15,987 bases of DNA from Okeania sp. (lineage in GTDB: Bacteria; Cyanobacteriota; Cyanobacteriia; Cyanobacteriales; Microcoleaceae): the NCBI RefSeq assembly GCF_035285525.1, contig NZ_JAYKGW010000170.1, positions 1 to 15,987 of the forward strand. Reading direction: 5' to 3'. Below are positions 1-15,987 of this stretch, piece by piece; position 1 is the stretch's first letter; each line of letters starts with the position of its first letter. A program made the translations under genes and the position numbers. The notes under the pieces are model-generated. The model was not told the origin of the DNA. It saw only the letters and a program-made list of their open reading frames with translations, and made no database searches.

Positions 1-70
1 TAAGATGGAAGGGGAGGCTAAGATGGAAGGGGGGGCTAAGATGGAAAGGGAGGCTAAGATGGAAAGGGAG
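1..70. repeat. 18-bp tandem repeat (taagatggaaRgggRggc), about 3.9 copies, truncated by the window start
   Basis: Units read directly at 1-18, 19-36, 37-54 and 55-70. The core ggctaagatg recurs at the CHAT start codon (221-230). Confidence 0.9.
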
Positions 71-227
71 TTTAGACCTCAGTCTAAGTCTAACTCTAAC
101 TCTGTTCACAGTTCCCCCCCTTACGAAGGGGGGGCTAGGGGGGGATATCAAAACAGTAGCATATCCACACCAATATTCCTGGGTAACTGATGAATCCCCC
201 CAACCCCCCTTTGAAAGGGGGGCTAAG

Positions 228-1607
228 ATGAGAGCAAGTTTGAATATGTGGGGTGATGAACCTGAATCTACTGAAACACCCGCAAAACATTATGTCTATG
301 ACTCCGAACCGGGTAAGCAACTTCGAGAGGCAGTTTTTGATAAGTTGCGGGATAAATTAGCAGGTTGCAGTCATTTAGTAATAGCTCCCGATGGGGACTT
401 AAACTTGGTGCCATTTCAGATATTGCCAGAGGATGATGACACAAAATTGCAGGATAGGTACAACATTAGTTATGTCAGCGTCGGGCGAGATTTATTACGC
501 CGTCGCATCAAAACCAAGGGTATGGCAAACGAACCATTAATTATCGCCGATCCTAATTTTGATTGGCCTCAGCACGATGCAGATAATCAAAAACCAGAGT
601 CAAATGTGGCTGTTTCTAGTCTTAATGTTAGTCAAGTGTTCGGTACTCTGGCAGGTGTAAGATTCGAGCGAGTGAAGGCAACCGCTGATTTTGCGGAAAA
701 TGCAGGTCAAAAGTTAGGAGTCAAACCTTTCTTGCAAAATAAGGCAACAGGCGATCGCCTCCTCAAATGTAAATCTCCCAAACTGCTGATAGTTGCTACC
801 CACGGTTATTACTCCCAGAGAGGCGAAGAATATAGGCGTTTGTTGATAGAGTTGCTAAAATGCTCCCAGGAAAAACAAGCAGAAATATTAGCAAAAAATT
901 ATGGTTTCGTTGATGAGGAGTTTCTGAAATATATTGAAGCATTGCAAAACGACGAAGATATTGATCGTGAAACCAGAGAAAAGTTGGGAGCAATATATTC
1001 TCTGGTGAAACGACAGATAAACACCACTTCAGCAAAACCCCCAGTTAATAACATGGAATTTGAAACTTTCCAACCAAACCGCCTTCAAGCAAAAGTCGAA
1101 AACCCGATGATGCGTTCGGCGATCGCTTTGACAGGAGCAAATACCTGGTTGTCTGGAGGCCAACTACCGGAAAAATTCCCAACCATGGTATTTGCTCAAG
1201 ACATTGCGGGAATTGACCTCTGGCAAACAGAACTCACGATTTTAATTGCCTGTCAAAGCGGGTTAGGAGACGTGCAAACGGGAGAAGGAGTTTTCGGGTT
1301 GCGTCGTGCATTTGCGGTAGCTGGCAGTAAAACATTAATAATGAGTTTGTGGAGCGTACCAACATTAGCAACTATGTTATTAATGGAGCAATTTTTAGAT
1401 TATTTAAAAGCAGGTATTGGTCCGGCGGAAGCATTGAAAAAAGCGCAGAAATATATCATTAATGTCACCGTTGGAGAGTTACAAAAAAGTAAATTAGGTC
1501 AGGATATTTTAGCTGAATTAATGTTAGGAAATAATCTGAAAATTGACAGTCAACCATTAGCTCATCCCTATTTTTGGGGAGCTTGGGTTTGTCAGGGAGA
1601 GAGCTAG
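228..1607 (+). CDS. CHAT-domain (caspase-like peptidase fold) protein
   Basis: 459-aa ORF. It has the CHAT-type catalytic context LIVATHGYY (His) and LIACQSGLGDVQTGEGVFGLRRAF (Cys), and the typical C-terminal AHPYFWGAWVCQG. The domain opens with LVIAPDGDLNLVPFQIL. The frame stays open upstream through the repeats to base 3, so the true 5' end is uncertain. Confidence 0.85.
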   Translation: MRASLNMWGDEPESTETPAKHYVYDSEPGKQLREAVFDKLRDKLAGCSHLVIAPDGDLNLVPFQILPEDDDTKLQDRYNISYVSVGRDLLRRRIKTKGMANEPLIIADPNFDWPQHDADNQKPESNVAVSSLNVSQVFGTLAGVRFERVKATADFAENAGQKLGVKPFLQNKATGDRLLKCKSPKLLIVATHGYYSQRGEEYRRLLIELLKCSQEKQAEILAKNYGFVDEEFLKYIEALQNDEDIDRETREKLGAIYSLVKRQINTTSAKPPVNNMEFETFQPNRLQAKVENPMMRSAIALTGANTWLSGGQLPEKFPTMVFAQDIAGIDLWQTELTILIACQSGLGDVQTGEGVFGLRRAFAVAGSKTLIMSLWSVPTLATMLLMEQFLDYLKAGIGPAEALKKAQKYIINVTVGELQKSKLGQDILAELMLGNNLKIDSQPLAHPYFWGAWVCQGES

Positions 1608-1613
1608 TAGAGA

Positions 1614-1667
1614 GTGTGGTCCGGGTGGTCCGTGTGGTCCGTGTGGTCCGTGTGGTCCGTGTGGGAG
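1614..1667. repeat. 9-bp tandem repeat (gtgtggtcc), about 6 copies, directly after the CHAT stop codon
   Basis: Direct reading: gtgtggtcc, gggtggtcc, gtgtggtcc x3, gtgtgggag. Confidence 0.9.
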
Positions 1668-1668
1668 G

Positions 1669-1703
1669 CGTAGGTTGGGTTGAGGAACGAAACCCAACAT
1701 TAG
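1669..1703 (+). repeat. Solitary copy of the hairpin repeat gtaggttgggttgaggaacgaaacccaacatta, the same family as the core of the 57-bp array at 15341-15987
   Basis: Perfect 8-bp stem gttgggtt/aacccaac with the 9-nt loop gaggaacga. It is near-identical to array unit 3 (15455-15511). Confidence 0.85.
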
Positions 1704-1718
1704 TACCGGGTATTCCTT

Positions 1719-1760
1719 TATCAGTTATCAGTTTTTAGTTGCCAGTTATTAGTTTAGTAG
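1719..1760. repeat. STRR-like heptamer repeat tract (cagttat variants)
   Basis: Reads tatcagttatcagtttttagttgccagttattagtttagtag. The same heptamer family occurs at 11457-11497 and 11667-11700. Confidence 0.75.
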
Positions 1761-1796
1761 TGGCGCGTCAAACTTGAAAATGTGGATGAAAAAACC

Positions 1797-1880
1797 TAAC
1801 CCCCCAACCCCCTTCCCTGCTAGCGTTGGGGGGATTTCTCCCCTCTCCTCGCAGGAGAGGGGTTGGGGGAGAGGTCTTCT
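1797..1880. repeat. GC-rich palindromic repeat cluster
   Basis: Contains a 9-bp stem cccctctcc (1840-1848) / ggagagggg (1854-1862) and CCCC/GGGG-rich arms. Related hairpins occur at 6625-6690. This cluster explains the spurious ORF 1774-2016. Confidence 0.7.
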
Positions 1881-2001
1881 AGGTTGCTCGCTCCTAATCC
1901 ACAATTTTAGAGTAGTTTGTAGTTATTCCCAATATTTCGGTGCGTTACGCTCCGCTTTTCATGTCCGCTCAAGCGCGGAAACACACCCTACTGAACTACA
2001 T

Positions 2002-2856
2002 TTATTCCCTCAATAATTCTAACTGATAACGATACAATGCTACGGGGCGATTAACTACTGAAAAATAATCGGGATCTCGAGGAGATAAATAAATAGCAGT
2101 TATCTGATTTGCTTCAATTATTTCGCCTCGTTTTTCATCAATAATATGATGATAATCTGTTGTTGTTTCTACCTCATTTAAGTAAATCATTGTCTCACTT
2201 TGAAATACCTGTTGAGTTATTTCTGAACTAATAAAATTATCTGGATTTAATTGTTGGCTACCTCGACTGGTAATAACGGAAACTAATTCTAAATTTTCTG
2301 CCAAAATAGTTGTCTGACGATTAGGATTATCTTGGTCAACTTTCACCGCTAAAATTGCATCATCACCTAATAATGCTTTGCCAATATTCAACCCATTAAA
2401 TTCTCGATCAGCCATAACTCCTTCTGGGGGTAAGTCTGATTTTTGAGTTTTATTTCTATTAGTTAGGGGCAACCAAAATGTGGGAAAATTTATTAATTTT
2501 TGTTTCGATATTTCTGGGTTATTCAACTTTGATTTAAGATGAATAAATCTAACTTGAAAATTCACAGGTTTATCCAAATATTGACGATTATTTTCAAAAC
2601 CTGGGGTGACAATTTTGGGAGCTAATGGAGCAACCATTTCTATTAAAGTGCTTCTCACATTCCAATTTCCTGCCATCCAGTCTGGATAAATTAAATCTCC
2701 TTTAGCAAGACTAATTGATGGTTTATTTTCCCAGTTAGGAAAATTAGCAACTCTGTCAGATAGGGTTTCTGCTACTGCATTATTGGGGAAAAGTAAAATA
2801 ATTGTAATTAAGCAGAAATTTAAAATTATTTGGCAAAATTTTTGGTAATATTCCAT
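2002..2856 (-). CDS. Hypothetical exported protein with an N-terminal signal peptide
   Basis: Long ORF. I place the start at the internal ATG at 2856 (MEYYQKFCQIILNFCLITIILLFPNNAVAE), which gives a signal-peptide-like N-terminus ending in AVA-E. The longer start at 2946 would overlap the neighbouring divergent gene. I recognise no family. Confidence 0.7.
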   Translation of the reverse strand: MEYYQKFCQIILNFCLITIILLFPNNAVAETLSDRVANFPNWENKPSISLAKGDLIYPDWMAGNWNVRSTLIEMVAPLAPKIVTPGFENNRQYLDKPVNFQVRFIHLKSKLNNPEISKQKLINFPTFWLPLTNRNKTQKSDLPPEGVMADREFNGLNIGKALLGDDAILAVKVDQDNPNRQTTILAENLELVSVITSRGSQQLNPDNFISSEITQQVFQSETMIYLNEVETTTDYHHIIDEKRGEIIEANQITAIYLSPRDPDYFSVVNRPVALYRYQLELLRE

Positions 2857-2888
2857 AATACAAAATTGATAAATATTTGTTATAAATC

Positions 2889-2916
2889 GTAGGGAGGTTG
2901 TATGCAACTTCCCTAC
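2889..2916. repeat. Palindromic repeat gtagggaggttg-tatg-caacttccctac in a divergent intergenic region
   Basis: About 12-bp stem with one mismatch. Same family as the palindromes at 11513-11540 and 11716-11743. Confidence 0.7.
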
Positions 2917-2963
2917 GTCTGAGAGAAGAAGTAAGTAGATTGACATTGGTACTTAATCATATC

Positions 2964-4004
2964 ATGCAAATTGACATTCAAACATTTACAGTTCATAAAA
3001 GATTTCCTTTAAAAATTAGTCGGGGAACTACTGCTCAAACTACAAATATTTTGGTCAAAATACAACACGAAAATATCGAAGGTTGGGGAGAAGCTTCTCC
3101 TTTTTCAACAGGAGAAAAAACACAACCAACCACAATTATACAGCAAGCTTTACAACAAATTACTCCTGCTCTAGAAAAGTTTAGTCCTCTCGATAGACAA
3201 CAAATAGAGCAACTCTTAACGGAATCACAAATACCATCAGCAGCAAGAGCAGCTATCGATATTGCTTTGCATGACTGGGTAGGAAAAAAAGTAGGTTTGC
3301 CTTTATGGCGACTTTGGGGACTGGAACGCCATCGCATTGTTCCTATTTCTGTCACTATCGGTATCAGTACCCCGGAAGTTGCTCAACAAAGGGTACGAAA
3401 CTGGTTAGAATTTATTGATGTGCGAGTGTTGAAACTAAAATTAGGAAGTTCGGAAGGTGTGGAAGCAGATCAGGCAATGTTGATGGCGGTGAAAGAGGCA
3501 GCACCTCCAGATACTTTGTTATATGTGGATGCAAATGGGGGTTGGAGTCTGGAGGATGGGGTGAAAATGTGTGATTGGTTGGCAACAGTAGGGGTTGTTT
3601 ATGTGGAACAACCATTAGCTGCTGTTTCGGCAATGACAGATTTACCTCATCTTTATGAGCGATCGCCACTACCTATTTTTGTCGATGAAAGTTGTTTTAC
3701 TGCTCAGGATATTCCTCCGTTAGCAGATCGAGTACATGGTATTAATATTAAGTTGATGAAGTCAGGGGGATTAACGGAAGCGATGCGAATGGTTTATGTA
3801 GCGAAAGCTTGTGGTTTGCAAGTAATGTTTGGTTGTTATTCTGACAGTTGTTTGGCGAATACAGCAGCAGCACAACTTGCGCCATTTGCAGATTATTTAG
3901 ATTTGGATAGTCATCTGAATTTAATTGACGATCCGTTTACGGGTGCAGTGATGGAAAAAGGGCGGTTATTGCCCAATGATTTACCAGGATTAGGGGTGAA
4001 GTAG
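2964..4004 (+). CDS. Dipeptide epimerase (L-Ala-D/L-Glu epimerase-like), enolase superfamily, MLE subgroup
   Basis: Start chosen at ATG 2964 (MQIDIQTFTV). Enolase-superfamily landmarks are GWGEASP, the KxK motif in LKLKLG, the metal-ligand contexts YVDANGGW, VEQP and VDES, and the second catalytic Lys in INIKLMKSGG. Confidence 0.85.
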   Translation: MQIDIQTFTVHKRFPLKISRGTTAQTTNILVKIQHENIEGWGEASPFSTGEKTQPTTIIQQALQQITPALEKFSPLDRQQIEQLLTESQIPSAARAAIDIALHDWVGKKVGLPLWRLWGLERHRIVPISVTIGISTPEVAQQRVRNWLEFIDVRVLKLKLGSSEGVEADQAMLMAVKEAAPPDTLLYVDANGGWSLEDGVKMCDWLATVGVVYVEQPLAAVSAMTDLPHLYERSPLPIFVDESCFTAQDIPPLADRVHGINIKLMKSGGLTEAMRMVYVAKACGLQVMFGCYSDSCLANTAAAQLAPFADYLDLDSHLNLIDDPFTGAVMEKGRLLPNDLPGLGVK

Positions 4005-4109
4005 GGAAGACAGAGGACAGAAGGAAAAGAAAGGTTGAAAAGGAAAAAGTTTTTTGATAGCGTCAGCAGAACGGAGTTCTATCGCTGATTATCCAGACAT
4101 GATATAATT

Positions 4110-4211
4110 AGGACTTACGCAAAGAAACCCGGTTTCTGGGAGAAACCGGGTTTCTGGGTTCAGTTCAAATCACGAGATTTTGTCGATAGACCCAGTTTCT
4201 GCGTAAGTCCT
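4110..4211. mobile_element. MITE-like element (102 bp) with aggacttacgca terminal inverted repeats
   Basis: The left end is aggacttacgcaaagaaacccggtttct. The right end agacccagtttctgcgtaagtcct is its approximate reverse complement. There is an internal direct repeat, aaacccggtttctggg x2. Solo ends of this family occur at 5187-5200 and 11603-11620. Confidence 0.7.
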
Positions 4212-4326
4212 GATCATACACAAGTGGTTTGTATTTTCTTATGTTTCCTAAGTCGTGAAACTTATACAGTGGACTCTACACAAAGGGCGCGGATATTTAT
4301 AAGTCCTGAAATCTTTTGATAGTCTA

Positions 4327-4354
4327 CTGTTCCCTGTTCCCTGTTCCCTATTCC
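4327..4354. repeat. Heptamer tandem repeat ctgttcc x4 (STRR-like)
   Basis: Direct reading: ctgttcc ctgttcc ctgttcc ctattcc. Confidence 0.85.
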
Positions 4355-4373
4355 CTAGCGCTATAACTGAATA

Positions 4374-5141
4374 ATGAATATATATCAAATTCTCAAACAA
4401 AGTCAACGTCTAAGAGTTAGCGATCGCCAAGTTGTACCTATTCTCAGTGGTTGTGAAAATGTGAATCGTCTTTTGATCATAATTTGGTCACAATTAGGCG
4501 ATTTTGACAATCTGGAATATGCTTGGTGGTTACAACGAAAATCAGCAAATTTACAAAAATTAGGAGTGACAATACGAGCGATCGCTATTGGTAATCATGC
4601 TTCTGGTAAGAAATTTTGTGAATATACTGGGTTTCCTGCTGAATCATTATTTGTCGATCCAGATGCTAAATTACATCGAGAATTAGAATTATATCAGGGA
4701 TTAACCTGGAAATTTCCCTTATTAAATAAAGGTCAAAATGCTTTCTTAAATTTAATGTTCATGTGTGCGGGTATTGGTAGTCCGGGTACTTTAGCAGAAG
4801 TGCTGAGAGGTTATACGGGAGATCAAAAAGCACCTCAACTAATCGGTGATAATGAAGTCATTCATGCTAAACCTCTACCACCCCTGAAAGGTTCATTTTT
4901 TAATTTAGCAGGTGGAAAAGGTTTTCAACGTCCTTTTGAGCTAGCAACATTGAGATTAAGAAATATGACTCAAGTTTTGAGTAACTGGTCAACTTATGTA
5001 CCTAATGCTGCTTATTTGACTCAAAGAGGTGGAACTTTTCTATTTGATCATCAGGGAAATTTGTTGTATAAACATTGCGATCGCGGCATTTTGGGGTTTG
5101 CCGAGAATAAAAGTGATCCTTTATTTTTCTTAAGGGAGTAG
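4374..5141 (+). CDS. Thioredoxin-fold AhpC/TSA-like (peroxiredoxin-like) family protein
   Basis: 255-aa ORF containing three HIP1 sites. The N-terminal region LIIIWSQLGDFDNLEYAWWLQ...LGVTIRAIAIGN resembles the peroxiredoxin-like fold but has WSQLGDFD where a redox Cys motif would sit. The family call is from memory. Confidence 0.65.
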   Translation: MNIYQILKQSQRLRVSDRQVVPILSGCENVNRLLIIIWSQLGDFDNLEYAWWLQRKSANLQKLGVTIRAIAIGNHASGKKFCEYTGFPAESLFVDPDAKLHRELELYQGLTWKFPLLNKGQNAFLNLMFMCAGIGSPGTLAEVLRGYTGDQKAPQLIGDNEVIHAKPLPPLKGSFFNLAGGKGFQRPFELATLRLRNMTQVLSNWSTYVPNAAYLTQRGGTFLFDHQGNLLYKHCDRGILGFAENKSDPLFFLRE

Positions 5142-5266
5142 TTTGATAATTAATAATTAATAATTAATAATTAATAATTAACTATCAGAACTTACGCAAA
5201 ACCACAATATAGGGTAAGGGTGAATGGCATTCGCCCTTACTTAAATCCCCGTGACAAAAACAAACT

Positions 5267-5385
5267 CTAACTTTTAAATTTTGAATGCATGACTTATTTT
5301 TCTAACTTTTGAATTTTAAATTTTGAATGCATGACTTATTTTTCTAACTTTTGAATTTTGAATGCATGACTTTTGAATTCAAAAA
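5267..5385. repeat. Tandem repeat of 35-42 bp (ctaactttt[gaatttt]aaattttgaatgcatgacttattttt), about 2.8 copies
   Basis: Units at 5267-5301, 5302-5343 and 5344-5370. It ends in the palindrome ttttgaattcaaaa, which contains the stop codon of the McrB-like gene. Confidence 0.85.
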
Positions 5386-6467
5386 GTTAACCATTCACAA
5401 GAAATAATTCCATCAATAAAATCATCTGATAAAGCCACAAAATCAGAATAAGTAATTAACTTAATACTTTGGCGATCACCTTTCGACAATAAACTTTCTA
5501 AAGGTCTTCTATCTCTAGAAAATACACTATCCCACAAATAAAACATTAACTTATTTTCTATGGATTCTTTAGTAACTTGATTATTCTCTGGTTTCAAAAA
5601 CCAAACACCAATTTGTTTATCTTCAATCCGCCGAATTACTTGATGATTAACCTTAATAAAATCATTGAGCTTATTCACAAAATCCAACCATTTTTCCTCC
5701 CTACTTTCTATCAAAATATCCTTAATTTTTTCTCTGCCATAACCAGGTACATCCACATATTCCCAATCCCACCTTCTTTTAAAAGCACTATCCAAATAAT
5801 ATATAGACTCATCCGAAGTATTAATCGTCGCCATAATTGACAAATTTCTAGGAATAGAAATTCTGTGACTGGTCAAATTTTATAATACTCGTAAACCATC
5901 TAAATTATCATTCATTTCTAACTTCATTTTAGTCATCTGACAAAACACATCAAAATTACTTCCATCCACCTGTATATTCTTATCAGCTGTTTGAGCATCA
6001 TATCTCATTGCTCGTAACAAAGGGACTATTTCTAACTCTGATAAATTTACATCATAAGTTGACCAATTATCTATTTCTCGGTCTAACAATTGAAAAATCG
6101 GAACGAAAATAGCAGCAGCATTTCCTCTATTTAATTCATCAATTACGAAAAGTACATTTTGGCTACTACCATCTATTAAATATTTATATGCCAACCCCAA
6201 TACTTGCAGAAAATGACCGGGATAAAATTTATAAATAACAGAACCACCTGCCGTAGTTTGTGGCAATAGTTTTCCTATAAAATATGAATATGTATACTCA
6301 GGATGAAAGACAGTTTTAATTGTATTTTCTAGGGATTTTGTTTGCTCATTCCATTTAATTTGTAAGGAATTATTTGCTATTTCTCGTACTTTATAACTTT
6401 TGCCTGTACCAGGACTGCAAAATAGAATTTTTTGAATAGGTTTTGTTGTTTGAGAGATTTCTGACAT
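5379..6467 (-). pseudogene. McrB-like AAA+ NTPase (restriction-system GTPase family) interrupted by an in-frame TAA; no McrC partner
   Basis: ORF-track fragments 5880-6467 and 5379-5876 are in the same frame. They are separated only by TAA (5880-5882), read as GLRVL*NLTSHR. The M of the second fragment is really TTG. Motifs are Walker A SPGTGKS, the McrB-type Walker B FVIDELNRGNAAAIF, then MATINTSDES and AFKRRWDWEYV, which match the MNTADRS and RRRF signatures. Confidence 0.75.
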
Positions 6468-6552
6468 AGATCAATTTTATAAGTCTATTTTGATTATTTA
6501 TATTAATTTAGGCAGTAAGTATTTAGGGATTAGCGATCGGCTTTCAGCAATA

Positions 6553-6728
6553 ATATCATGTCTGGATAATTAGAAAAAACTTTCTCTTTCTTCTCCTCTT
6601 CTTCTTTCTTCCCTCCTGACTTCCCTTCCTGGAAGGGGTAGGGTTTGGTTAACTCCTGAATTCCCCTCTTGGGAGGGGTTAGGGGTGGGTTAGTTATTTA
6701 TTTATAACTGTTCAACCGGACATGATAT
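6553..6728. mobile_element. MITE-like element (176 bp) with 13-bp terminal inverted repeats atatcatgtctgg / ccggacatgatat
   Basis: The ends are reverse complements at 12 of 13 positions. The interior is a polypyrimidine tract plus two GC-rich hairpins (cccttcctggaagggg, cccctcttgggagggg). A related end lies at 4088-4105. Confidence 0.65.
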
Positions 6729-7176
6729 AAGACCAAATATATAGGGAACTTTTCGACTTTATTTAGTAAGATTTAATTTGATACACTTTAGGTTCTGCTC
6801 TTAAGAATAAGGGTAAGTATTTTCTCAGGAAATCCAGAGGCTTTAAATAATGAAATTTATTTTTTTTATCCCCTTAAAAGGGGAAGCTTTATACCTCTTT
6901 TTTTGGTGAATTTAATTTTAGTAAAAAAGCCTATTTTTAAAGAATAAATTTATTAAAAAAAAGGCAGTTTTAAAGTTTAAGTGCTTATGGAAAATTAATT
7001 GTATAATTCCCTGAAGATTGAGGTTTTTATTGCTAATAGCTGAATACTTACGACTCAGGTTTAAACAAAGCTTTTATTATGCAACTAAAACCAATAGCTG
7101 ATTGCTTACAAAATAGATTACAATAATACTCACTAAAATCAAAAATCTTATTTTTGAAATTAAAGGCTAATTAATT

Positions 7177-9072
7177 ATGAAATATTTTTTTGGGAGTAAA
7201 TTTCAGAATAACTTAATCTTATTATTAATATCAGGAATTTTATTACCTGTAGGTGCTGTGACACTATACAGCACTATTTCCTCAAGTAATGTCTTGAGAA
7301 ATTTAGTTTCTCAACAAATGAAATCAAAGGGGGAAGATAGTGCAGAAACTATTAATCTGTTTTTAGAGAACCTCAGATCGGACATTATGTATTTAAGTAA
7401 TACTCCTCCTATTCAAGGAATTATTAGAGCTAGAAATAATAATGGTACCGATCCCTTAGATAATTCTAGTTATCAAAATTGGGTTAATCGTTTAAATTTG
7501 ATATTTGCTTATTTTATAGAGTCAAACTCTTATTATGATAATATTACTTATTTAGATGAAAATGGTAATGAATTAGTAAGAGTTAATCGTCAAGGTAATC
7601 AAATTATTAAATTAGCTGAAAATCAACTTCAAAGTCAAGCAAATCAAAATCAATTACAAGAAATACTAAACTTGCAGCCAGGGGAACTCTATGTATCAAA
7701 AATATCTCTTTCTCGAAAAAATGGAATTATAGAAGAACCTTATAAACCTGTGATTATTTATGGTGTTACTATTTACGATCAAAAAGGTATTAAGAAAGGA
7801 GTTATAGTGGCTAGCATTCTGATTGAAAATATTTTAAAACTTGCTGTAGATAAAGAATTAGAGGAGCAATTAAAACAACAATTTTTTGTGGTTAATGAAG
7901 AAGGATATTATATTCTGCATCCAGAACCAGATAAAACCTGGGGTTTTGAACTAGGTAATAATATAACCCTGCAACAAGACTATTCTTCAGAAGTGACCAA
8001 TCAAGTTCTTTCTAGAAATCAAGGATTAATTAAAAAAGTCACCCAAAATCGCCAAAATTACTTGTTGAGTTATTATACAATTTTTCCTAACCAAGATACC
8101 AATTTATTTCCTTTTACTTTGGTATATCAAACACCATATAAAACCATATTTTTATCAGTTAAAGTTTTAGTAATATTGGTAATCCTTATGACAATTGTTT
8201 CGATGATTATAGTAGTCACAAGTGGGATTTTAATTTTAAGAAAAATAGTTGTTTCAGCATTAGATACAACAACTTTTGTGGCATCTTTTTCTAATCAAGT
8301 TCTCTCTACAATTGATGAACAAGAGAAAGTTGTCAATCAACAATCTGTATCAGTACAAAAAACAACTATTGCCATGGAAGAATTAAATATTTCATCTCAA
8401 CAATCAGCCAATCAAGCAAAATCAGCATTAACAGGGGCAAAATCAGCATTATCTTTAGTAGAAGAAGGTACTAATAGTATTCAAAAAACATCTATAGCTA
8501 TGACAACTTTAAAAGATAAAGTAGAAGCTATTTCTCAGCAAATTCTCCACTTAAGTCAACAAAATCATCAAATTGGTAATGTTTCTAATGTTGTTAGTTC
8601 TCTTGCTAATCAAACTAATATTTTAGCTCTCAATGCTACCATAGAAGCTATTCATTCTGGAGCAGAAGGTAAAGGTTTTTCTGTAGTTGCTGGAGAAATT
8701 CGTAAACTAGCAGACGAAAGTAAAAAATCAGCAGACCATATAAGTATTTTAGTTAGAGATATTCAAACAGCAATTAATTCTACTGTATTAGTCACAGAAG
8801 AAGGAACAAAATATGCAGAACAAATAACTCAAATTAGTGAAAGTATGGCACAAATTTTTGTGGATGTTGCACAATCAATGGAGGAAATAGTTAATAATAG
8901 TCAACAAATTGCTTTAAACTCTAAACAACAGGCAAATGCTACTCAACAAGTAACAAATAATATAGATACTTTAAATCGAGGCTCATTACAAATTACAGAA
9001 GGAGTTGACCAAACAAAAATAGGCATCAAGAAACTTAATGAAGCTGTCTCAAAATTAAAAGCAATTATTTAA
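7177..9072 (+). CDS. Methyl-accepting chemotaxis protein with a periplasmic Cache-type sensor
   Basis: 631 aa. TM1 is LILLLISGILLPVGAVTLYSTI. An extracytoplasmic region of about 290 aa has Cache-like strands (PVIIYGVTIYDQKGIKKGVIVASI, FVVNEEGYYILHPEP). TM2 is VLVILVILMTIVSMIIVVTSGILIL. The MCP hairpin-tip signature is NILALNATIEAIHSGAEGKGFSVVAGEIRKLADES (about 8610-8720). I see no obvious HAMP domain and no che genes in the window. Confidence 0.9.
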   Translation: MKYFFGSKFQNNLILLLISGILLPVGAVTLYSTISSSNVLRNLVSQQMKSKGEDSAETINLFLENLRSDIMYLSNTPPIQGIIRARNNNGTDPLDNSSYQNWVNRLNLIFAYFIESNSYYDNITYLDENGNELVRVNRQGNQIIKLAENQLQSQANQNQLQEILNLQPGELYVSKISLSRKNGIIEEPYKPVIIYGVTIYDQKGIKKGVIVASILIENILKLAVDKELEEQLKQQFFVVNEEGYYILHPEPDKTWGFELGNNITLQQDYSSEVTNQVLSRNQGLIKKVTQNRQNYLLSYYTIFPNQDTNLFPFTLVYQTPYKTIFLSVKVLVILVILMTIVSMIIVVTSGILILRKIVVSALDTTTFVASFSNQVLSTIDEQEKVVNQQSVSVQKTTIAMEELNISSQQSANQAKSALTGAKSALSLVEEGTNSIQKTSIAMTTLKDKVEAISQQILHLSQQNHQIGNVSNVVSSLANQTNILALNATIEAIHSGAEGKGFSVVAGEIRKLADESKKSADHISILVRDIQTAINSTVLVTEEGTKYAEQITQISESMAQIFVDVAQSMEEIVNNSQQIALNSKQQANATQQVTNNIDTLNRGSLQITEGVDQTKIGIKKLNEAVSKLKAII

Positions 9073-9797
9073 TTAATTAGTAAGCATTCAGCAGTCAACC
9101 ATCAGCTATCAGCTCTTTAATAAATAGTGCTAAATCTAGTAATATCAGTTAAATAAAGCATATTATCCCGGTAAGCATTTAGCACTCAGCTATTGATTTT
9201 ATTTTGATAAAAAAGCTTGATAATACGGTTCCCGATAAATCAGAAATTTTATCTGACTACAAAATTCAGTTCTCACTTTCTTTATTCCTTTAAATATCTT
9301 TGTTGAAATTGAGATTTTTATTCCTGATGACTGACAGCTAATAGCTGAATCTTTACTGATTCCGACTTGATATTATATGCTATATTTATTGTACTAAAAA
9401 AAAGCTTTTATTATGTAACTAAAGAAAAAAAAATAGCTGACGGCTGTTTGCACAGCATTCCAGAGGAAATGCTTACCAAACAATTAATAATTAATAGTTA
9501 ATAATCAAGAATTTATAGTCAATAATTATTAATTCCAAAATTCGCGCCTTGAAGCCTCCCCTTTTAAGGGGATAAATAAAAAAAATTCCTTTTAGTCAAT
9601 CCCCTTCTTTTAAGAATGGCTAATTATTAATTATTAATTTTTCATTGTTAATTGCTGAAATTAATTACAGATACAACAATTCTAAATGTAAGAGCATAAT
9701 TCTCAAAAACATACCTTTTTAAAACTCCTCACACTTCCCACCTTTCCAACTATAATAATTAAGTATTCAACCAGATTTAATCTAAAAGGGAAGCCAA

Positions 9798-11453
9798 ATG
9801 CTATCTAGTCTTGCAGTAACTAACTCTCGTCAAGCAGAAATAGTCGAAATTGTCCTCCGCAACGGCTGGGACTACATGAAAACTCTTCTCACAGGAGGCA
9901 AAACTGGTGAACCAGACTTACCAACACCAGCAGTTTTACGGAACATTTTTGTAGATTTAGGCCCAGTATATATAAAGCTTGGTCAGCTATTGAGTACCCG
10001 TCCAGACATATTACCAGCAGATTATATTGATACTCTATCAACCTTGCAAGCCGACGTACCACCAATACCTTGGTCTGAAGTAGAAATGTTAATTCGTCAA
10101 CAACTTTCTCAACCTTTAGAAGAAGTATTTAGCAACATAAATACTAAATGTGTTGCCGCAGGTTCCATCGCTCAAACTTATAAAGCTACTTTAAAAGATG
10201 GTACCGAAGTAGCTCTCAAAGTTCAACGTCCGGGTATTGATAGAATAATTAATAAAGATATTGCTTTACTGAAAAGTTTAGGTGAGTTAGTATCATTTAC
10301 AGAATTTGGTAAAAGTTATGATATTGTGTCTTTGGCTGAAGAATTTGGTGATGCTTTACAAGCAGAATTAAATTTTACTAAAGAAGCTGGTTATACTGAT
10401 GAATTAAGTCGGAATTTATCTACAAGCAAATGGTTTGATTCAAAACAAATTATGGTTCCAAAAGTATATTGGGAGTTCACTACTCCGAAGCTTTTAGTTC
10501 TAGAATGGTTAAACGGTAAACCAATTTTATCAGCAACAGTTAAAGGTACTAATTATAATGGCGATATAAATGCAGAAAAGCAAGCACTTTCTACATTATT
10601 ATGTCGTGCTTTTTTCCAGCAATTTTATATTAATGGTTTTTTTCATGCTGACCCCCATCCAGGCAATATCTTTTATTTGGAAGATGGGAGAATTGCTCTT
10701 TTAGACTGTGGAATGGTAGGTCGTCTCGATCCTCGGACTCAAGAAAATTTAACGGAATTATTATTAGCAATAGTTGATTTAGATGCTCAAAGGTGTGCCC
10801 ATTTAACTTTAGAAATAGCAGAAGTTTCTCAACTTTCCAATTTAGCTAAATTGGAAAATGATTATAGCAAAATGCTGCGAAAATATTATAATCTCAGCTT
10901 GTCTGAACTTAACTTTTCTGAGGTATTTTATGACATTTTAGAACTGTGTCGTAACAATAAAATTAAATTGCCCAGTAATTTAGGTTTATATTCCAAAACT
11001 TTAGGAAATTTAGAAGGAGTTGCTCGGAGTTTTTATCCCCAAATTAATCTTTTAGATGAGATTAAACCATTAATGACTGATTTATTTCGCCGACAATTAT
11101 TAGGAGACGATCCGGTACAAACTTTATTAAGAACAGCTATTGATGTGAAGAATTTATCTTTAGGTTCTCCTCGTCAGTTAGACTTATTTTTAGATAGACT
11201 TACTTCCGAAACATTGAAGTGGAATTTAACTATAAAAGATATTGAATTTTTGGGTCGGAGTGTAGATAAATCAGCTAATAGATTATCTTTTAGTGTGGTT
11301 GTTGGTTCGTTAATTATTGGTGCTGCTATTGTGACTGCGGGTTCTCAAAGTAGTCAGTTATCTGTGTTAAGTGAAGCTTTATTTACTACGGCTAGTTTTC
11401 TGGGGTTATGGTTAGTTATTAGTATTCTTCGTTCTGGTCGTTGGAAGGAGTAA
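9798..11453 (+). CDS. ABC1/UbiB (AarF) family atypical protein kinase
   Basis: 551 aa. Family motifs are LGPVYIKLGQLLSTRPDILP, AAGSIAQTYKA, VALKVQRPGI, FFHADPHPGNIF and LLDCGMVGRL. There are C-terminal hydrophobic helices. Confidence 0.9.
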   Translation: MLSSLAVTNSRQAEIVEIVLRNGWDYMKTLLTGGKTGEPDLPTPAVLRNIFVDLGPVYIKLGQLLSTRPDILPADYIDTLSTLQADVPPIPWSEVEMLIRQQLSQPLEEVFSNINTKCVAAGSIAQTYKATLKDGTEVALKVQRPGIDRIINKDIALLKSLGELVSFTEFGKSYDIVSLAEEFGDALQAELNFTKEAGYTDELSRNLSTSKWFDSKQIMVPKVYWEFTTPKLLVLEWLNGKPILSATVKGTNYNGDINAEKQALSTLLCRAFFQQFYINGFFHADPHPGNIFYLEDGRIALLDCGMVGRLDPRTQENLTELLLAIVDLDAQRCAHLTLEIAEVSQLSNLAKLENDYSKMLRKYYNLSLSELNFSEVFYDILELCRNNKIKLPSNLGLYSKTLGNLEGVARSFYPQINLLDEIKPLMTDLFRRQLLGDDPVQTLLRTAIDVKNLSLGSPRQLDLFLDRLTSETLKWNLTIKDIEFLGRSVDKSANRLSFSVVVGSLIIGAAIVTAGSQSSQLSVLSEALFTTASFLGLWLVISILRSGRWKE

Positions 11454-11828
11454 ATACAGTTATCAGTTATCAGTTATTAGTTAATAGTTAACAGTTTTAA
11501 ATTTAATCAGATGTAGGGATGTTCCATGGAACTTCCCTACCATTTGTTTTATTAATAATATTAGGGATTATTTGTAGATGAGTCTAAATATTCTTTATTA
11601 TTAGGACTTACGCAAAGACACTTATATATAGCGTGTCTTCGTTCTGGTCGTTGGAAGGAGTAAATACAGTTATCAGTTATCAGTTATTAGTTAATAGTTT
11701 TAAATTTAATCAGATGTAGGGATGTTCCATGGAACTTCCCTACCATTTGTAAAAAACATTTGTTGTTTTTGATAATATTAGGGAGTATTTGTAGAAGAAT
11801 CTAAATATTCTTTATTATCTAAATATAT
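11426..11828. repeat. Tandem duplication (period about 210 bp) of the convergent intergenic region plus both flanking gene 3' ends
   Basis: Copy 1 is 11426-11602 and copy 2 is 11636-11828. They are joined by the 33-bp aggacttacgcaaagacacttatatatagcgtg. Each copy carries the last 27 nt of the ABC1 CDS, STRR heptamers, the palindrome gtagggatgttccatggaacttccctac (11513-11540, 11716-11743; a possible bidirectional terminator) and the last 45 nt or so of the HEPN CDS. Confidence 0.9.
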
Positions 11829-12464
11829 TTCAATATTCTCTAAAATTTGTCTTAAATATTCTACTACTTTATTTTTAATTTCCATCAGTTTGTCAGCAGT
11901 TATTTCTTTTCCTACTTCCCCAAAAGTTCTCATACCATGCGCTAACTCATTTCTATTATCCTTGACTTTCAATATATCGCTACTATCAATTTTTGTTTTT
12001 GGAGAAAATCCATATTCTTGAGCTATTTTTTTAATCTTTTTAACATCAATATTTCCAGAAAATAGTTTTTCTTTATCAAATCCAACAGTAATAATATCTA
12101 TTGATATATCTACAATTTTTTGACAAACTTTGTCAGAATTTTTATGGTTCAAGTTCCGAAGCACAATTTTCTGTAATTCAGGTCTAAGATTATCAAAGGA
12201 AATTCCTTGATTTTGTAGCTCACTAAATATTGATTCAATAGCATTTCTCATAGTAGATTCTATTAAATTGTAAATTAACAAATAAGCACTTGCGTTCAAG
12301 GTATCTTCTCACTCCTTAGTGATTTTTTTAGGTTTATTATTTCCTTGATTTTCTGCGATAAATCTTATTTTTCCTTTCTGTAAATTATCAATAAAAGTCA
12401 AATATTCACTAACTTCTTTAGAAAGCTTATTAAAATCTTCAAATACAAATGATATGTTTGCCAT
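11778..12464 (-). pseudogene. HEPN-like nuclease (resembles the MAE_28990/MAE_18760 HEPN family) interrupted by an in-frame TGA
   Basis: The ORF-track fragment 11778-12299 begins at TTG, not ATG. A 51-codon segment in the same frame starts at ATG 12464 (MANISFVFEDFNKLSKEVSEYLTFIDNLQKG...KITKE). It is separated from the fragment only by TGA at 12309-12311. The HEPN Rx4H motif is RNELAHG. The total of 227 codons fits a complete single-domain HEPN protein. Confidence 0.65.
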
Positions 12465-12467
12465 TAA

Positions 12468-13580
12468 TTATTTACCTAATAGTTTATCCCTGACATATTC
12501 AATTCGTCGCACTACTTTAACATTGGAAGTACTTCCATCGCTCTTTGTGTAGTCTTTAAATTTCTTTGTATTGAGTAAATCATCTCCTTGATAATGAAGA
12601 TTATTTTTTTCTCTTAAAGCAAGAGCAATACCTACAGAAAGAGACTCAAATTTAATTCTAGTTGTTGTTTTATCTAAATTTTTACCTGAGCGAAAACCAT
12701 TAGGAAAATGCTTTCTCGCAAAACTTATCATTGCTTGAAATTCATTTTTCATTTCCTTTAAATTTATTTTTTTATCTTGATTAACATTATGCAAATATTC
12801 ATTAAGAAAATCATTTATTCCTAGTGTAATTTGAAAATTTTGATAATTATTTAAGAAAGCAAAAAAACGTAAAACATATTCTTGAGGTTCACGTTTATTA
12901 ATAGCAGTTTCAGAAAAATAACAAAGTTCTATAAATGTTGATAATTTTGATAACTCCTCTACTAAATCAGTAACTTTTCCAGGTAATATACCTCTGCGTT
13001 TCTCCATTTCATTTAACTGAACACTACCTGTATTAATTCTTTCAAAAATATCTCGTCGTGTTTCCTCATTTGCTTTTTCTGTTAATTCAATTATCCTAAC
13101 AGTAGCTCTGTTAAAGCGTCTCTGACGAGGAAGAGGTAAATCTTCAAATTTAAAATTATTAAGCTTAGTTAACTTTTTTAATTCAGATAGTTTTAGCTCA
13201 TTTTTAATAAATCTAGTTAAGGTACGAGTACGTTGAGTTCCATCAATAATCTCTAAACGACCTTCATCCTCTTCATTGTCTCGATCGTTAATATCAGCAA
13301 TAAATATTGGAGGTATTGGTAATCCTAAAAATACAGATTCAATAAATTTTGACTGTCTTTCTTCATCCCAAATCATCTCTCTTTGATAATCAGGTATAAA
13401 TAATTCATTAGTATCGTCTTCTCTTCCTTCGATATACTTCTGAACCAGAACTTCTACTGGATATTCTGTTGTTCAATAATTAACAGCTTTTTGCTTTTCC
13501 CTAATTTCAGCTTCAGCAGCTTCTTTTTGTTCATTAGTTATTTGGGATTTACTATTAGTATTTGTTGGCATAGTTGACAT
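12468..13580 (-). pseudogene. DUF262 (ParB/Srx-fold, GmrS-like) domain protein interrupted by an in-frame TGA
   Basis: The ORF-track fragment 12468-13376 starts in the middle of the domain. The frame is open upstream to 13472 and encodes TTEYPVEVLVQKYIEGREDDTNELFIPDYQRE before MIWDEERQSKFIESVFLGLPIPPIF and the DGTQR motif. TGA at 13473-13475 separates this from a same-frame 35-codon leader starting at ATG 13580 (MSTMPTNTNSKSQITNEQKEAAEAEIREKQKAVNY). Confidence 0.8.
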
Positions 13581-13630
13581 ATTTTTACTTTAGGTAGTGG
13601 CGTGACACGCCTTAAATAATGCAATAGTAG

Positions 13631-13687
13631 GGGCGGGTTTTAGCTAGAATTTTAATGGTTACTCTAATATTTACATAAACCCGCCCT
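13631..13687. repeat. Hairpin repeat gggcgggttt-N37-aaacccgccc
   Basis: Perfect 10-bp stem read directly. It lies upstream of the DUF262 gene and downstream of the MFS gene. The smaller hairpins ggcgtgacacgcc (13599-13611) and ggtttggtctccaaacc lie nearby. Confidence 0.7.
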
Positions 13688-13903
13688 CATCCACAGTTTT
13701 AGTTGTGTCAGTCTAGTAGGTTCTTTAATATTGAAAATTAATTATATAGCAATCCTAAATAAGTTCTAATATTTTATCCTATAGGTTTGGTCTCCAAACC
13801 CAAAAGCAAAGGAATAAAGAATAAATTTTGAATAAAGTAGCAATATTAGATATTATTCAAATTTTCTACTACTCCTTATTCCCTCTTCCCTATCTTAATT
13901 TTC

Positions 13904-15340
13904 CTAATCTAATTCTCCTTCTAAAATAGTAGCGATCGCCACATTTGCATTATCTTTAAATTCTCGAACATTGACTCTATTTAACAGAAAAATTGACCCG
14001 ATCATTCCTATTCCTGCTAATACAAAAACTAATCCATAAGCCAACATAGAAATATCAAACAAAAGCCGACCTAAATCTAAAGTTGCACCCCCAATAACTG
14101 TAGATAAACCTCTTGCCATTGCTTGTGCTAATCCCCAAGCACCAATAAAAGTTCCTGCTGTTTCTGCCACAGTTAAATCTAACATTAAACTGAGAGAAGC
14201 AGTAGTAGTTAAACCAGCAGCTAAACCATATAAAAATAAAGCAGTTTTAAATAAAGAAGCTTCCCCAGTAAACCCAGACATAACTATCAACATAAAACTA
14301 ATTGCTGTAGCTATACATCCAACTTTTAAAGAATTTTTCTTACCTAATCTTGGTACTACTAAAAATCCCGTTGTACCTAATCCCAATAAAGTTCCCATTC
14401 CCGAAACAGCATTCAATCTAGTAGATTCAGAAATTGGCATCGAAAATATCTCCCCAGCATAAGGTTCTAAAACTGCATCCTGCATAAATAAACTAATAAT
14501 TAGAACAAATAAAAATGTAAAAAATAAACCAGTTTGTCGATTCGCTCTTAAAACCTTGAAAGTTGTTGCTAAAGTAATTTTATCTTCCCGATTAGCAATA
14601 GTTGAACGAGTACGATAACGAGAGTATTTTTGTTCAACTCCCACAGTAGCAATAAAAGCAAAAATCAACACAATTGTTGGTACTTTAATAAACAAACTAT
14701 TAACAGATGCTTTCACAGTTTCTAACGGTGCTTCTACACCAACTTGTTTCAATAAAATACTACTGGTAATCGCCCCAATAATAATTCCCACCATCAACAT
14801 TGACCAGACAATACCAACAATTTTCGAGCGATTATTTTCATCAGAAATATCTACTAATAAAGCAGCAAAAGGTGTCGAACTTGCACTTAAAGCTAGACCG
14901 TAAATGATAAACATTAAACCCAAAATTCCAATCCAAAAATAAGTCGGATTACTCCAACCATTCGCTGTTAAACTATCACCAACCTGCCACATAACTTGCA
15001 CCGCAAAAAAAGCAGTCACCGTAAATAAAACTGTACCTATCCACATATAACCAGTGCGGTGTTGACCAAATAAAGGTTTAACGTCAGACATTTGCCCAAA
15101 CCAAACTCTGGCTGGAGCCATAAATTGATATAATGATAAAGTTACTGCTACAATTGTAGCTGGTATTTTTAATTCAGCAATCATTATTCGGTTTAAAACT
15201 CCGAGAGTTAAAACTGACATTATTCCCAATCCCATTTGAAAGAAACCTAATCTAAATATGGTGAATAAATTAAGTTGAGGTGGAATTTTTTGATTGTCAA
15301 GATTATCTAATTTTTCGACTTGTAAATTTTCGTTTTTCAT
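13904..15340 (-). CDS. MFS transporter, PucC/LhaA (BCD) family
   Basis: 478 aa with about 12 hydrophobic segments. The N-terminal signature LGFFQMGLGIMSVLTLGVLNRIMIAELKIPATIVAVTLSLYQFMAPARVWFGQMSD matches my recollection of the PucC/BCD family. It contains one HIP1 site. Confidence 0.8.
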   Translation of the reverse strand: MKNENLQVEKLDNLDNQKIPPQLNLFTIFRLGFFQMGLGIMSVLTLGVLNRIMIAELKIPATIVAVTLSLYQFMAPARVWFGQMSDVKPLFGQHRTGYMWIGTVLFTVTAFFAVQVMWQVGDSLTANGWSNPTYFWIGILGLMFIIYGLALSASSTPFAALLVDISDENNRSKIVGIVWSMLMVGIIIGAITSSILLKQVGVEAPLETVKASVNSLFIKVPTIVLIFAFIATVGVEQKYSRYRTRSTIANREDKITLATTFKVLRANRQTGLFFTFLFVLIISLFMQDAVLEPYAGEIFSMPISESTRLNAVSGMGTLLGLGTTGFLVVPRLGKKNSLKVGCIATAISFMLIVMSGFTGEASLFKTALFLYGLAAGLTTTASLSLMLDLTVAETAGTFIGAWGLAQAMARGLSTVIGGATLDLGRLLFDISMLAYGLVFVLAGIGMIGSIFLLNRVNVREFKDNANVAIATILEGELD

Positions 15341-15987
15341 AGTTAAATTAATAGTGTAGGTTAAGTTGAGGAACGAAACCCAACATTAATTTTTCATAGT
15401 TAAATTAATGCTGTAAGTTAGTTGAGGAACCAAAGCCCACATTAATTTTTTCATAGTTAAATTAATAGTGTAGGTTGGGTTGAGGAACGAAACCCAACAT
15501 TAATTTTTCATAGTTAAATTAATAGTGTAGGTTAAGTTGAGGAACGAAACCCAACATTAATTTTTCATAGTTAAATTAATGCTGTAAGTTAGTTGAGGAA
15601 CCAAAGCCAACATTAATTTTTCATAGTTAAATTAATGCTGTAAGTTAGTTGAGGAACCAAAGCCCACATTAATTTTTTCATAGTTAAATTAATATTGTAG
15701 GTTAAGTTGAGGAACGAAACCCAACATTAATTTTTCATAGTTAAATTAATAGTGTAGGTTAAGTTGAGGAACCAAAGCCAAAATTAATTTTTCATAGTTA
15801 AATTAATGCTGTAAGTTAGTTGAGGAACGAAATCCCACATTAATTTTTCATAGTTAAATTAATAGTGTAGGTTAAGTTGAGGAACGAAACCCAACATTAA
15901 TTTTTCATAGTTAAATTAATGCTGTAAGTTAAGTTGAGGAACGAAACCCAACATTAATTTTTCATAGTTAAATTAATAGTGTAAGTT
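15341..15987. repeat. 57-bp tandem array, 11 full units plus a partial one, running off the window end
   Basis: Unit boundaries are at 15341, 15398, 15455, 15512, 15569, 15625, 15682, 15739, 15796, 15852, 15909 and 15966. Each unit is agttaaattaat + hairpin-repeat core + attaatttttcat. There are two core variants, agtgtaggttaagttgaggaacgaaacccaac and gctgtaagttagttgaggaaccaaagccNac, plus hybrid units. Confidence 0.95.

Follow-up and report, generated by a model that had tools for sequence, protein, structure and literature searches.

A DUF262 Gene and a HEPN Gene Share One Reading Frame

We analysed a stretch of 15,987 nucleotides (nt) from Okeania sp. (contig NZ_JAYKGW010000170.1, positions 1 to 15,987), referred to as the window, for a gene pair on its minus strand that encodes a DUF262 protein (GmrSD_N, ParB-like NTPase; gene A) and a stand-alone HEPN protein (gene B). 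All coordinates are positions in the window. Both genes lie in a single continuous minus-strand frame of 601 codons that runs from 13580 to 11778 (1803 nt). Gene A occupies positions 12468–13580, with its ATG at 13580 and, after 370 codons, its TAA at 12470-12468. Gene B occupies positions 11778–12464, from the ATG at 12464-12462 through 228 codons to the TAA at 11780-11778. The junction (12462–12470, minus strand) reads TAA-TTA-ATG, with the stop codon of gene A located 3 nt before the start codon of gene B in the same frame, as had been described in an earlier reading of the bare DNA (the original prediction). Of the coding unit proposed there, the frame, the junction and the tight coupling stand, but the integrity of the open reading frames (ORFs) does not, as each gene is interrupted by one in-frame TGA and is annotated here as a pseudogene. 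The flanking genes encode an ABC1 kinase, convergent with the pair on the gene B side, and a PucC/MFS protein on the upstream side, in agreement with the ABC1 kinase and MFS neighbours predicted earlier.

The protein encoded by gene A gave a single Pfam match, to GmrSD_N/DUF262 (PF03235, E=4.7e-30, amino acids (aa) 52-198), and no match to DUF1524 in the same search even at E<=1, which agrees with the prediction of a DUF262 protein lacking DUF1524. The motifs that had been pointed out beforehand (IPDYQRE-x-W, LPIPPIF and DGTQR in gene A, RNELAHG in gene B) are all present in the translated frame, and alignments of gene A show P63, D64, Y65, Q66, W71, D113, G114, Q116 and R117 to be invariant. 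The homology search with gene A returned 3,502 matches, the best of which are intact 370-aa proteins from Dapis with 84% identity. The AlphaFold2 (AF2) model of the Dapis orthologue (predicted local distance difference test score (pLDDT) 79) consists of an alpha/beta N-terminal domain followed by a helical C-terminal half. With this model Foldseek retrieved SspE (6jiv, E=2e-4) and BrxU (7p9k, E=5e-4) from the PDB, followed by ParB/Noc CTPases. Sequence searches of the PDB with the profiles of gene A and gene B gave no matches. The possibility that the C-terminal half of gene A conceals a DUF1524/HNH domain was considered and ruled out, given the absence of a Pfam match at E<=1 and the helical model of that region.

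Gene B matches the Pfam family HEPN_MAE_28990 (PF18737) over almost the entire model (positions 6-211 of 211) with E=3.1e-31 and 109.6 bits against a cut-off of 26.8 bits, and it also matches HEPN_RiboL-PSP (PF18735, E=1.5e-10). Both scores exceed the curated cut-offs, so the second gene does encode a stand-alone HEPN protein as proposed. The sequence RNELAH represents the Rx4H signature of these proteins; in an alignment of 15 sequences R171 does not vary, and at least 90% of them retain H176. Homologues of gene B were found in 313 matches, and intact Okeania proteins of 226 aa were the closest (76% identity). The AF2 model of a HEPN orthologue is all-alpha with a pLDDT of 86.

The two proteins of the window have different closest relatives: the DUF262 protein is closest to Dapis (84%), and the HEPN protein is closest to Okeania KiyG1 (76% vs 60% to Dapis). 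In Dapis-related loci an extra degenerate HEPN-like fragment with in-frame stops is found downstream of the intact pair (L002, around 8189-8318; a second HEPN match in L001; related loci are referred to by L numbers). These degenerate fragments hint that the HEPN gene may have undergone duplication or allele exchange in the past, and the differing closest relatives are consistent with this.

Each Gene Contains One Nonsense Codon

The in-frame TGA of gene A is codon 36 (13473–13475, minus strand) and is located upstream of IPDYQRE. The six closest homologues have Arg at this position and more distant ones have Asp or Asn, and a single substitution, CGA to TGA, accounts for the stop. In gene B the TGA is codon 52 (12309–12311, minus strand), in an alignment column (the Leu of 'EL') that holds a near-invariant Leu in 14 homologues; here too one substitution suffices, TTA to TGA. 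The ORF list accordingly contains fragments, namely 302 aa of gene A starting at M69, and 51 aa and 173 aa of gene B, the latter starting at a TTG at 12299. The longest residual ORF of gene A lacks the invariant residues P63-D64-Y65-Q66, and the residual ORF of gene B lacks the first long helix seen in the AF2 model of the orthologue. Judged from their sequence, the products that remain after the stops are unlikely to be able to work.

Neither gene contains a frameshift. Pairwise ratios of nonsynonymous to synonymous substitution rates (dN/dS) involving the window are 0.27-0.34 for DUF262 and 0.30-0.52 for HEPN, which is within the range between intact orthologues. The dN/dS values, which resemble those of intact pairs, together with the lack of frameshifts, indicate that the inactivation is recent, and since intact orthologues exist, we regard this copy as a young pseudogene pair. 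Genome-wide recoding of TGA was ruled out, because TGA terminates an AAA_5 gene in the same window exactly where the AAA_5 orthologues end and because the in-frame stops found in the pair genes of relatives are TAA or TAG and lie at other, unrelated codons. This pattern in the relatives points to sporadic decay and not to recoding. The Logan assembly of SRR19514071 is 100% identical to the window from 11721 to 15362, both stops included.

As both interruptions are TGA codons, the locus might also still be functional, either by rare read-through or through active truncated proteins (the 302 aa from M69 and the 173 aa from the TTG at 12299), which would hold the dose of a toxic system low. The intact DGTQR and RNELAH motifs, the lack of frameshifts and the dN/dS values, which are not raised, would fit such a state. 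It is difficult to reconcile, however, with the loss of the invariant PDYQ from the truncated DUF262 protein and of the first long helix from the truncated HEPN protein, with TGA being a genuine stop in this genome, and with the relatives' stops described above. Nor does it account for a third defence-type gene of the window that has a TAA nonsense codon, which fits general decay. We consider continued function very improbable, and the cassette in this window is most likely non-functional as far as its sequence can tell.

The third gene encodes the AAA_5 (McrB/LlaJI-like) ATPase and lies at 5379-6467 on the minus strand. Its in-frame TAA (5882-5880) stands where the intact 361-aa orthologues of Okeania and Dapis have Glu, corresponding to a change from GAA to TAA. 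The orthologue matches Pfam AAA_5 with E=1e-5 and the PADLOC 'REase_II' models with E=1.4e-36. The three defence-type genes in the window are thus each broken by a single stop, and the housekeeping genes are intact.

The Two Genes Are Linked in Cyanobacteria, on Plasmids and in Viral Contigs

To assess how widely the pair occurs we scanned one genome per species with gene A. This yielded 201 relatives, of which the best 80 loci, all cyanobacterial, were kept. In 77 of these 80 loci gene A is immediately followed by a homologue of gene B, and both ORFs are intact in about 70 of the 80. The gap between the two genes in the 77 loci is 3-27 nt, with the exception of the disrupted locus L026. A search from the HEPN side in IMG/VR gave the same picture, with a DUF262 gene directly upstream in all nine viral contigs recovered. 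Seen from both sides, the two families co-occur far above chance, which clearly answers the co-occurrence check that had been suggested beforehand.

The same pair is carried by plasmids of E. coli (IncF), Klebsiella, Rhizobium and Phaeobacter, where NCBI names the proteins 'DUF262 domain-containing protein' and 'MAE_28990/MAE_18760 family HEPN-like nuclease'. When 5,426 E. coli genomes were searched at the DNA level, the pair from the E. coli plasmid returned identical plasmid copies only. Further DUF262 proteins, those from K. aerogenes and A. baumannii pAB1, are partnered with HEPN proteins of the RiboL-PSP type. When the HEPN profile was compared by hhalign with one such partner, the R..AHG motif alone was aligned (E=0.06).

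The Pair Belongs to an Already Described Group of Systems

The pairing had been put forward as novel and experimentally uncharacterised, which does not hold. Operons that combine a MAE_28990 HEPN gene with a ParB (DUF262) gene and a DNA methylase have been described, computationally only, by Anantharaman, Makarova, Burroughs, Koonin & Aravind (2013, Biol Direct 8:15), and DUF262/COG1479 domains are frequently combined with HNH, PD-(D/E)xK or HEPN nucleases (Makarova et al., 2013). The window agrees with the MAE_28990 operons in the HEPN family of gene B (PF18737, E=3e-31, above the Pfam cut-off) and in the ParB-like DUF262 gene directly upstream, and relatives of the window carry a C5 methyltransferase as in the 2013 description. 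It differs from them in having no methyltransferase and in the nonsense mutations in both genes.

A pairing of this kind has furthermore been tested against phage. PD-T4-2 from E. coli ECOR65, recorded as 'DUF262, HEPN', was validated against T4 (Vassallo et al., 2022, Nat Microbiol; PMC9519451), and its deletion in the native strain led to a dramatic rise in the efficiency with which T4 forms plaques (PMC9519451). By HHpred, PD-T4-2B corresponds to PF18735 (97.8%) and PF18737 (96.9%). Like the window, PD-T4-2 is a two-gene operon of DUF262 and a stand-alone HEPN gene with neither DUF1524 nor a methyltransferase. The PADLOC model PD-T4-2_A (PDLC04027) matches gene A with E=3.6e-33 (aa 62-362 against model positions 54-356 of 363), and gene B shares the Pfam families PF18735 and PF18737 with PD-T4-2B. 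Unlike gene A, gene B is unmatched by PD-T4-2_B; this comparison was made by models and published descriptions. PD-T4-2, which lies at 338334-339873 of QOYX01000002, is also smaller, with 1540 nt for both ORFs and a HEPN protein of about 165 aa vs 1803 nt and 228 aa in the window. Within the searchable literature, mechanistic work on PD-T4-2 or on the MAE_28990 branch was not found.

The best PADLOC match of gene A is NsnA of Menshen (NsnABC; Millman et al., 2022), with E=1.1e-57 and an alignment that spans model positions 20-376 of 385. The two proteins have the same architecture of ParB-DUF262 followed by a helical 'ParBDB' part of the DNA-binding type, and in NsnA this combination has been proposed as the DNA sensor of Menshen (NAR 2025, PMC12065111). 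According to two later papers, DUF262 occurs without DUF1524 in PD-T4-2, Menshen and Dazbog. Membership in Menshen was nevertheless ruled out, as the genes for the NsnB ABC-ATPase/DUF3696 protein and the NsnC inPIN effector are absent and no ATPase ORF follows the pair; what lies downstream of gene A is the HEPN gene, and then the convergent ABC1 kinase gene. With GmrSD, BrxU and SspE gene A has in common the N-terminal DUF262 domain with its DGxQR motif, and SspE and BrxU are the best fold matches of the model. These proteins differ from the 370-aa protein of gene A by a C-terminal DUF1524/HNH domain that it lacks; its presumed effector is instead the separate HEPN protein.

A match of the pair to a named system had been listed beforehand as something that would refute the proposal; it is borne out for gene A, by NsnA and PD-T4-2_A, and fails for gene B. 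PADLOC would probably call the locus as neither PD-T4-2 nor Menshen. The most fitting description is that of a MAE_28990 branch within a DUF262-HEPN superfamily, with PD-T4-2 as the tested example of that superfamily. The cassette is thus known already, having been described computationally since 2013, named by NCBI and phage-validated in its relative PD-T4-2. The window holds a dead copy of this known cassette, and its modest value is comparative.

A C5-Cytosine Methyltransferase Accompanies Many of the Pairs

We clustered the neighbouring ORFs of the 80 loci to find recurrent families. One such family was found, a protein of about 346 aa that is encoded in 42 of the 80 loci by a gene convergent to the HEPN gene and abutting its 3′ end. 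It is a C5-cytosine DNA methyltransferase (PF00145, E=4e-53) that also matches the PADLOC type II MTase and DrmMII models. In L020 (8058-9119), L026 (8703-9764) and L042 (7766-8827) it lies between the HEPN gene and the ABC1 kinase gene. On the Klebsiella plasmid the methyltransferase gene is convergent as well, and the Phaeobacter plasmid has it co-directional with, and overlapping, the HEPN gene. Eight of the nine viral contigs carry it, downstream of the pair in some and upstream in others. That the linkage is kept through rearranged gene orders argues for a functional connection, and the presence of the methyltransferase in many genomes makes the cassette resemble a restriction-modification module. 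In the window itself tblastn with the PF00145 methyltransferase found no remnant of such a gene.

Given this linkage in cyanobacterial loci, viral contigs and plasmids, in three arrangements, the pair could serve as the restriction half within a type II-like restriction-modification system of three genes, composed of a 5-methylcytosine (m5C) methyltransferase, the DUF262 protein and the HEPN protein, that attacks unmethylated DNA. The window would then hold an orphaned half, silenced after loss of the methyltransferase. Its two broken genes and missing methyltransferase would be in accordance with this, as would the presence of the methyltransferase at the same chromosomal site in L020, L026 and L042 and the weak match of gene A to the PADLOC 'REase_II' model (E=2.2e-6). 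Yet both genes are intact in L001-L004, L006 and L007, where no methyltransferase is adjacent, and broken copies are found with it (L027, L038, L060) as well as without it (L005, L008). No methyltransferase accompanies the pair on the E. coli IncF plasmid, PD-T4-2 functions in K-12 as two genes, and HEPN domains are typically RNases and not DNases. We find this explanation rather unlikely.

A related proposal concerns the intact relatives and not the window as such. They could form an experimentally uncharacterised triad resembling a restriction-modification system, in which a C5-cytosine methyltransferase sets a self-mark on the DNA, and a ParB-type DUF262 NTPase reads this mark and is coupled to an RNase effector, the MAE_28990 HEPN protein, instead of a DNase. 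We put this forward tentatively, as less likely to be true than to be false. If it were true, the site beside the ABC1 kinase gene in Okeania and Dapis would constitute a natural allele series, with alleles that have the methyltransferase, alleles that lack it and decayed alleles, and the window would be the decayed end of the series.

Proposed Function of the Cassette

In SspE and GmrSD the DUF262 domain is an NTPase that senses the state of the DNA and activates the nuclease attached to it, and NsnA of Menshen has been proposed to act likewise. A second analogy comes from PrrC and other HEPN proteins that are associated with restriction-modification systems. By these analogies the protein of gene A would bind DNA, and NTP binding or hydrolysis by its DUF262 domain would discriminate foreign or unmarked DNA from self. 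The DUF262 protein would then release or activate its HEPN partner, most likely an RNase acting through the Rx4H site, and the HEPN activity would stop phage propagation. Where the m5C methyltransferase is present, it would mark self DNA.

The two-gene unit could alternatively be an addiction module of the toxin-antitoxin type, with the HEPN RNase as the toxin and the DUF262 NTPase as its neutraliser, analogous to HEPN-MNT or ParA/Soj-MAE_18760. Its main role would then be to stabilise mobile elements and not to sense phages. The tight coupling of the two genes does resemble a toxin-antitoxin operon, and a role of this kind has been proposed for MAE_18760 with ParA/Soj (Anantharaman et al., 2013). 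The upstream partner, on the other hand, is a large protein of 370 aa whose sensor architecture is that of SspE, GmrSD and NsnA. Conjugative and small plasmids and viral contigs carry the module, as the addiction reading would have it, but the recurrent linkage to a methyltransferase points to a logic of DNA modification, and PD-T4-2 gives phage defence in its native chromosomal context. We judge this alternative to be improbable.

Taken together, we conclude with good confidence that a widespread defence cassette of two genes is present at this locus in a recently inactivated copy; in its intact form the cassette would operate by the sensor-effector scheme outlined above. A number of points weigh against this. 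We found no biochemical or genetic work on a pair of the MAE_28990 type in the searchable literature, and the sensor-effector mechanism is drawn from analogy. Foldseek gave no significant match of the HEPN model in the PDB, the best being Csm6 (4rgp, E=0.19), and the PADLOC model PD-T4-2_B does not match gene B at E<=1 and matches one of 15 homologues, with E=0.007. Intact pairs with no adjacent methyltransferase are common, both in the closest relatives listed above and on E. coli plasmids. With regard to the inactivation, the supporting Logan contig comes from the single run SRR19514071, maybe the same data as the window, and the sequence is such that low-level TGA read-through or active truncated products may leave some function.

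What the comparison adds is that linkage of the DUF262 and HEPN genes is almost invariable in cyanobacteria, on proteobacterial plasmids and in prophage-like contigs, that the pair often travels with an m5C methyltransferase, and that a single chromosomal site in Okeania and Dapis holds divergent, methyltransferase-less and decayed alleles. The intact orthologues found here, among them the Klebsiella triad WP_023341342/WP_023307400/WP_023307401, the E. coli IncF pair WP_034169386/WP_034169387 and the pair of Dapis BLCC M126, would be reasonable material for mechanistic work.

The Chromosomal Site Is Shared With Relatives

The closest relatives of the locus are found in Okeania, Dapis and Trichodesmium (Oscillatoriales), and not in the Nostocales as had been assumed. 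In 11 relatives the neighbour of the pair is likewise this ABC1 kinase gene, again in convergent orientation, namely Dapis L001-L003, Okeania L004-L008, L020 and L026, and L042. The ABC1 protein is full length with 84-93% aa identity in 10 of the 11; L005 has a fragment only. In most of these relatives the AAA_5 gene is found further along. The PucC/MFS side upstream of the pair in the window is not common to them. Two divergent alleles of the pair occupy the site: one without methyltransferase (L001-L008), whose DUF262 proteins are 71-84% identical to that of the window, and one with methyltransferase (L020, L026, L042), at about 64% identity. On sequence grounds, this suggests allelic replacement at a fixed defence locus.

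The pair has a GC content of 0.278 vs 0.335 for the whole window, which agrees with its description as AT-rich. The island-like context that had been suggested partly on this basis is a weak reading. The orthologous pairs of the relatives are equally low in GC (about 0.30 vs about 0.38 for ABC1), so the low GC is not a sign of recent arrival, and the synteny with ABC1 in 11 relatives, together with the same low GC there, rules out a recent island insertion. The pair does lack HIP1 sites, as had been noted, but this is uninformative: the window has seven sites in 16 kb, from which about 0.8 would be expected in 1.8 kb, and HIP1 depletion was dropped as evidence.

The duplication scar that had been noticed next to the pair was confirmed. 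In the intergenic region between the convergent ABC1 and HEPN genes about 210 nt are duplicated in tandem (11426–11819), with copies at 11426-11602 and 11636-11819. The duplicated segment comprises the final 28 nt of the ABC1 gene, a palindrome of 28 nt (11513-11540 and 11716-11743 in the respective copies) and about 40 nt of the 3′ end of the HEPN gene. The repeat families D1-D3 have a spacing of 203-217 nt and 91-100% identity, and the inverted repeats I1, I6 and I7 were also detected. Breaks in the Logan contigs fall at the beginning of copy 1 (11455) and inside copy 2 (11721).

A scan for promoters and terminators returned nothing exceeding shuffled controls, and tRNA and Rfam scans of the window found no tRNA gene and no Rfam family. 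The short motif TTGCGTAAGT[C/T]CT is seen at the junction of the duplication copies (11603-11635) and again downstream of the AAA_5 gene (5225-5250), and it may be a small dispersed repeat involved in rearrangements. AT-rich tandem repeats are found at 5150-5390, with TTAATTA runs around 5160-5200 and units of about 30 nt around 5290-5380. The intergenic DNA around the AAA_5 gene also includes a G/C-rich region (6590-6730) with segments resembling inverted repeats (CCCCTAACCCCTCCCAAGAGGGGAA...), which may represent a miniature mobile element. Finally, an ORF of 459 aa at 228-1607 encodes a protein with a CHAT domain (caspase-like protease; PF12770, E=8e-49), a domain that often occurs in defence and conflict systems.

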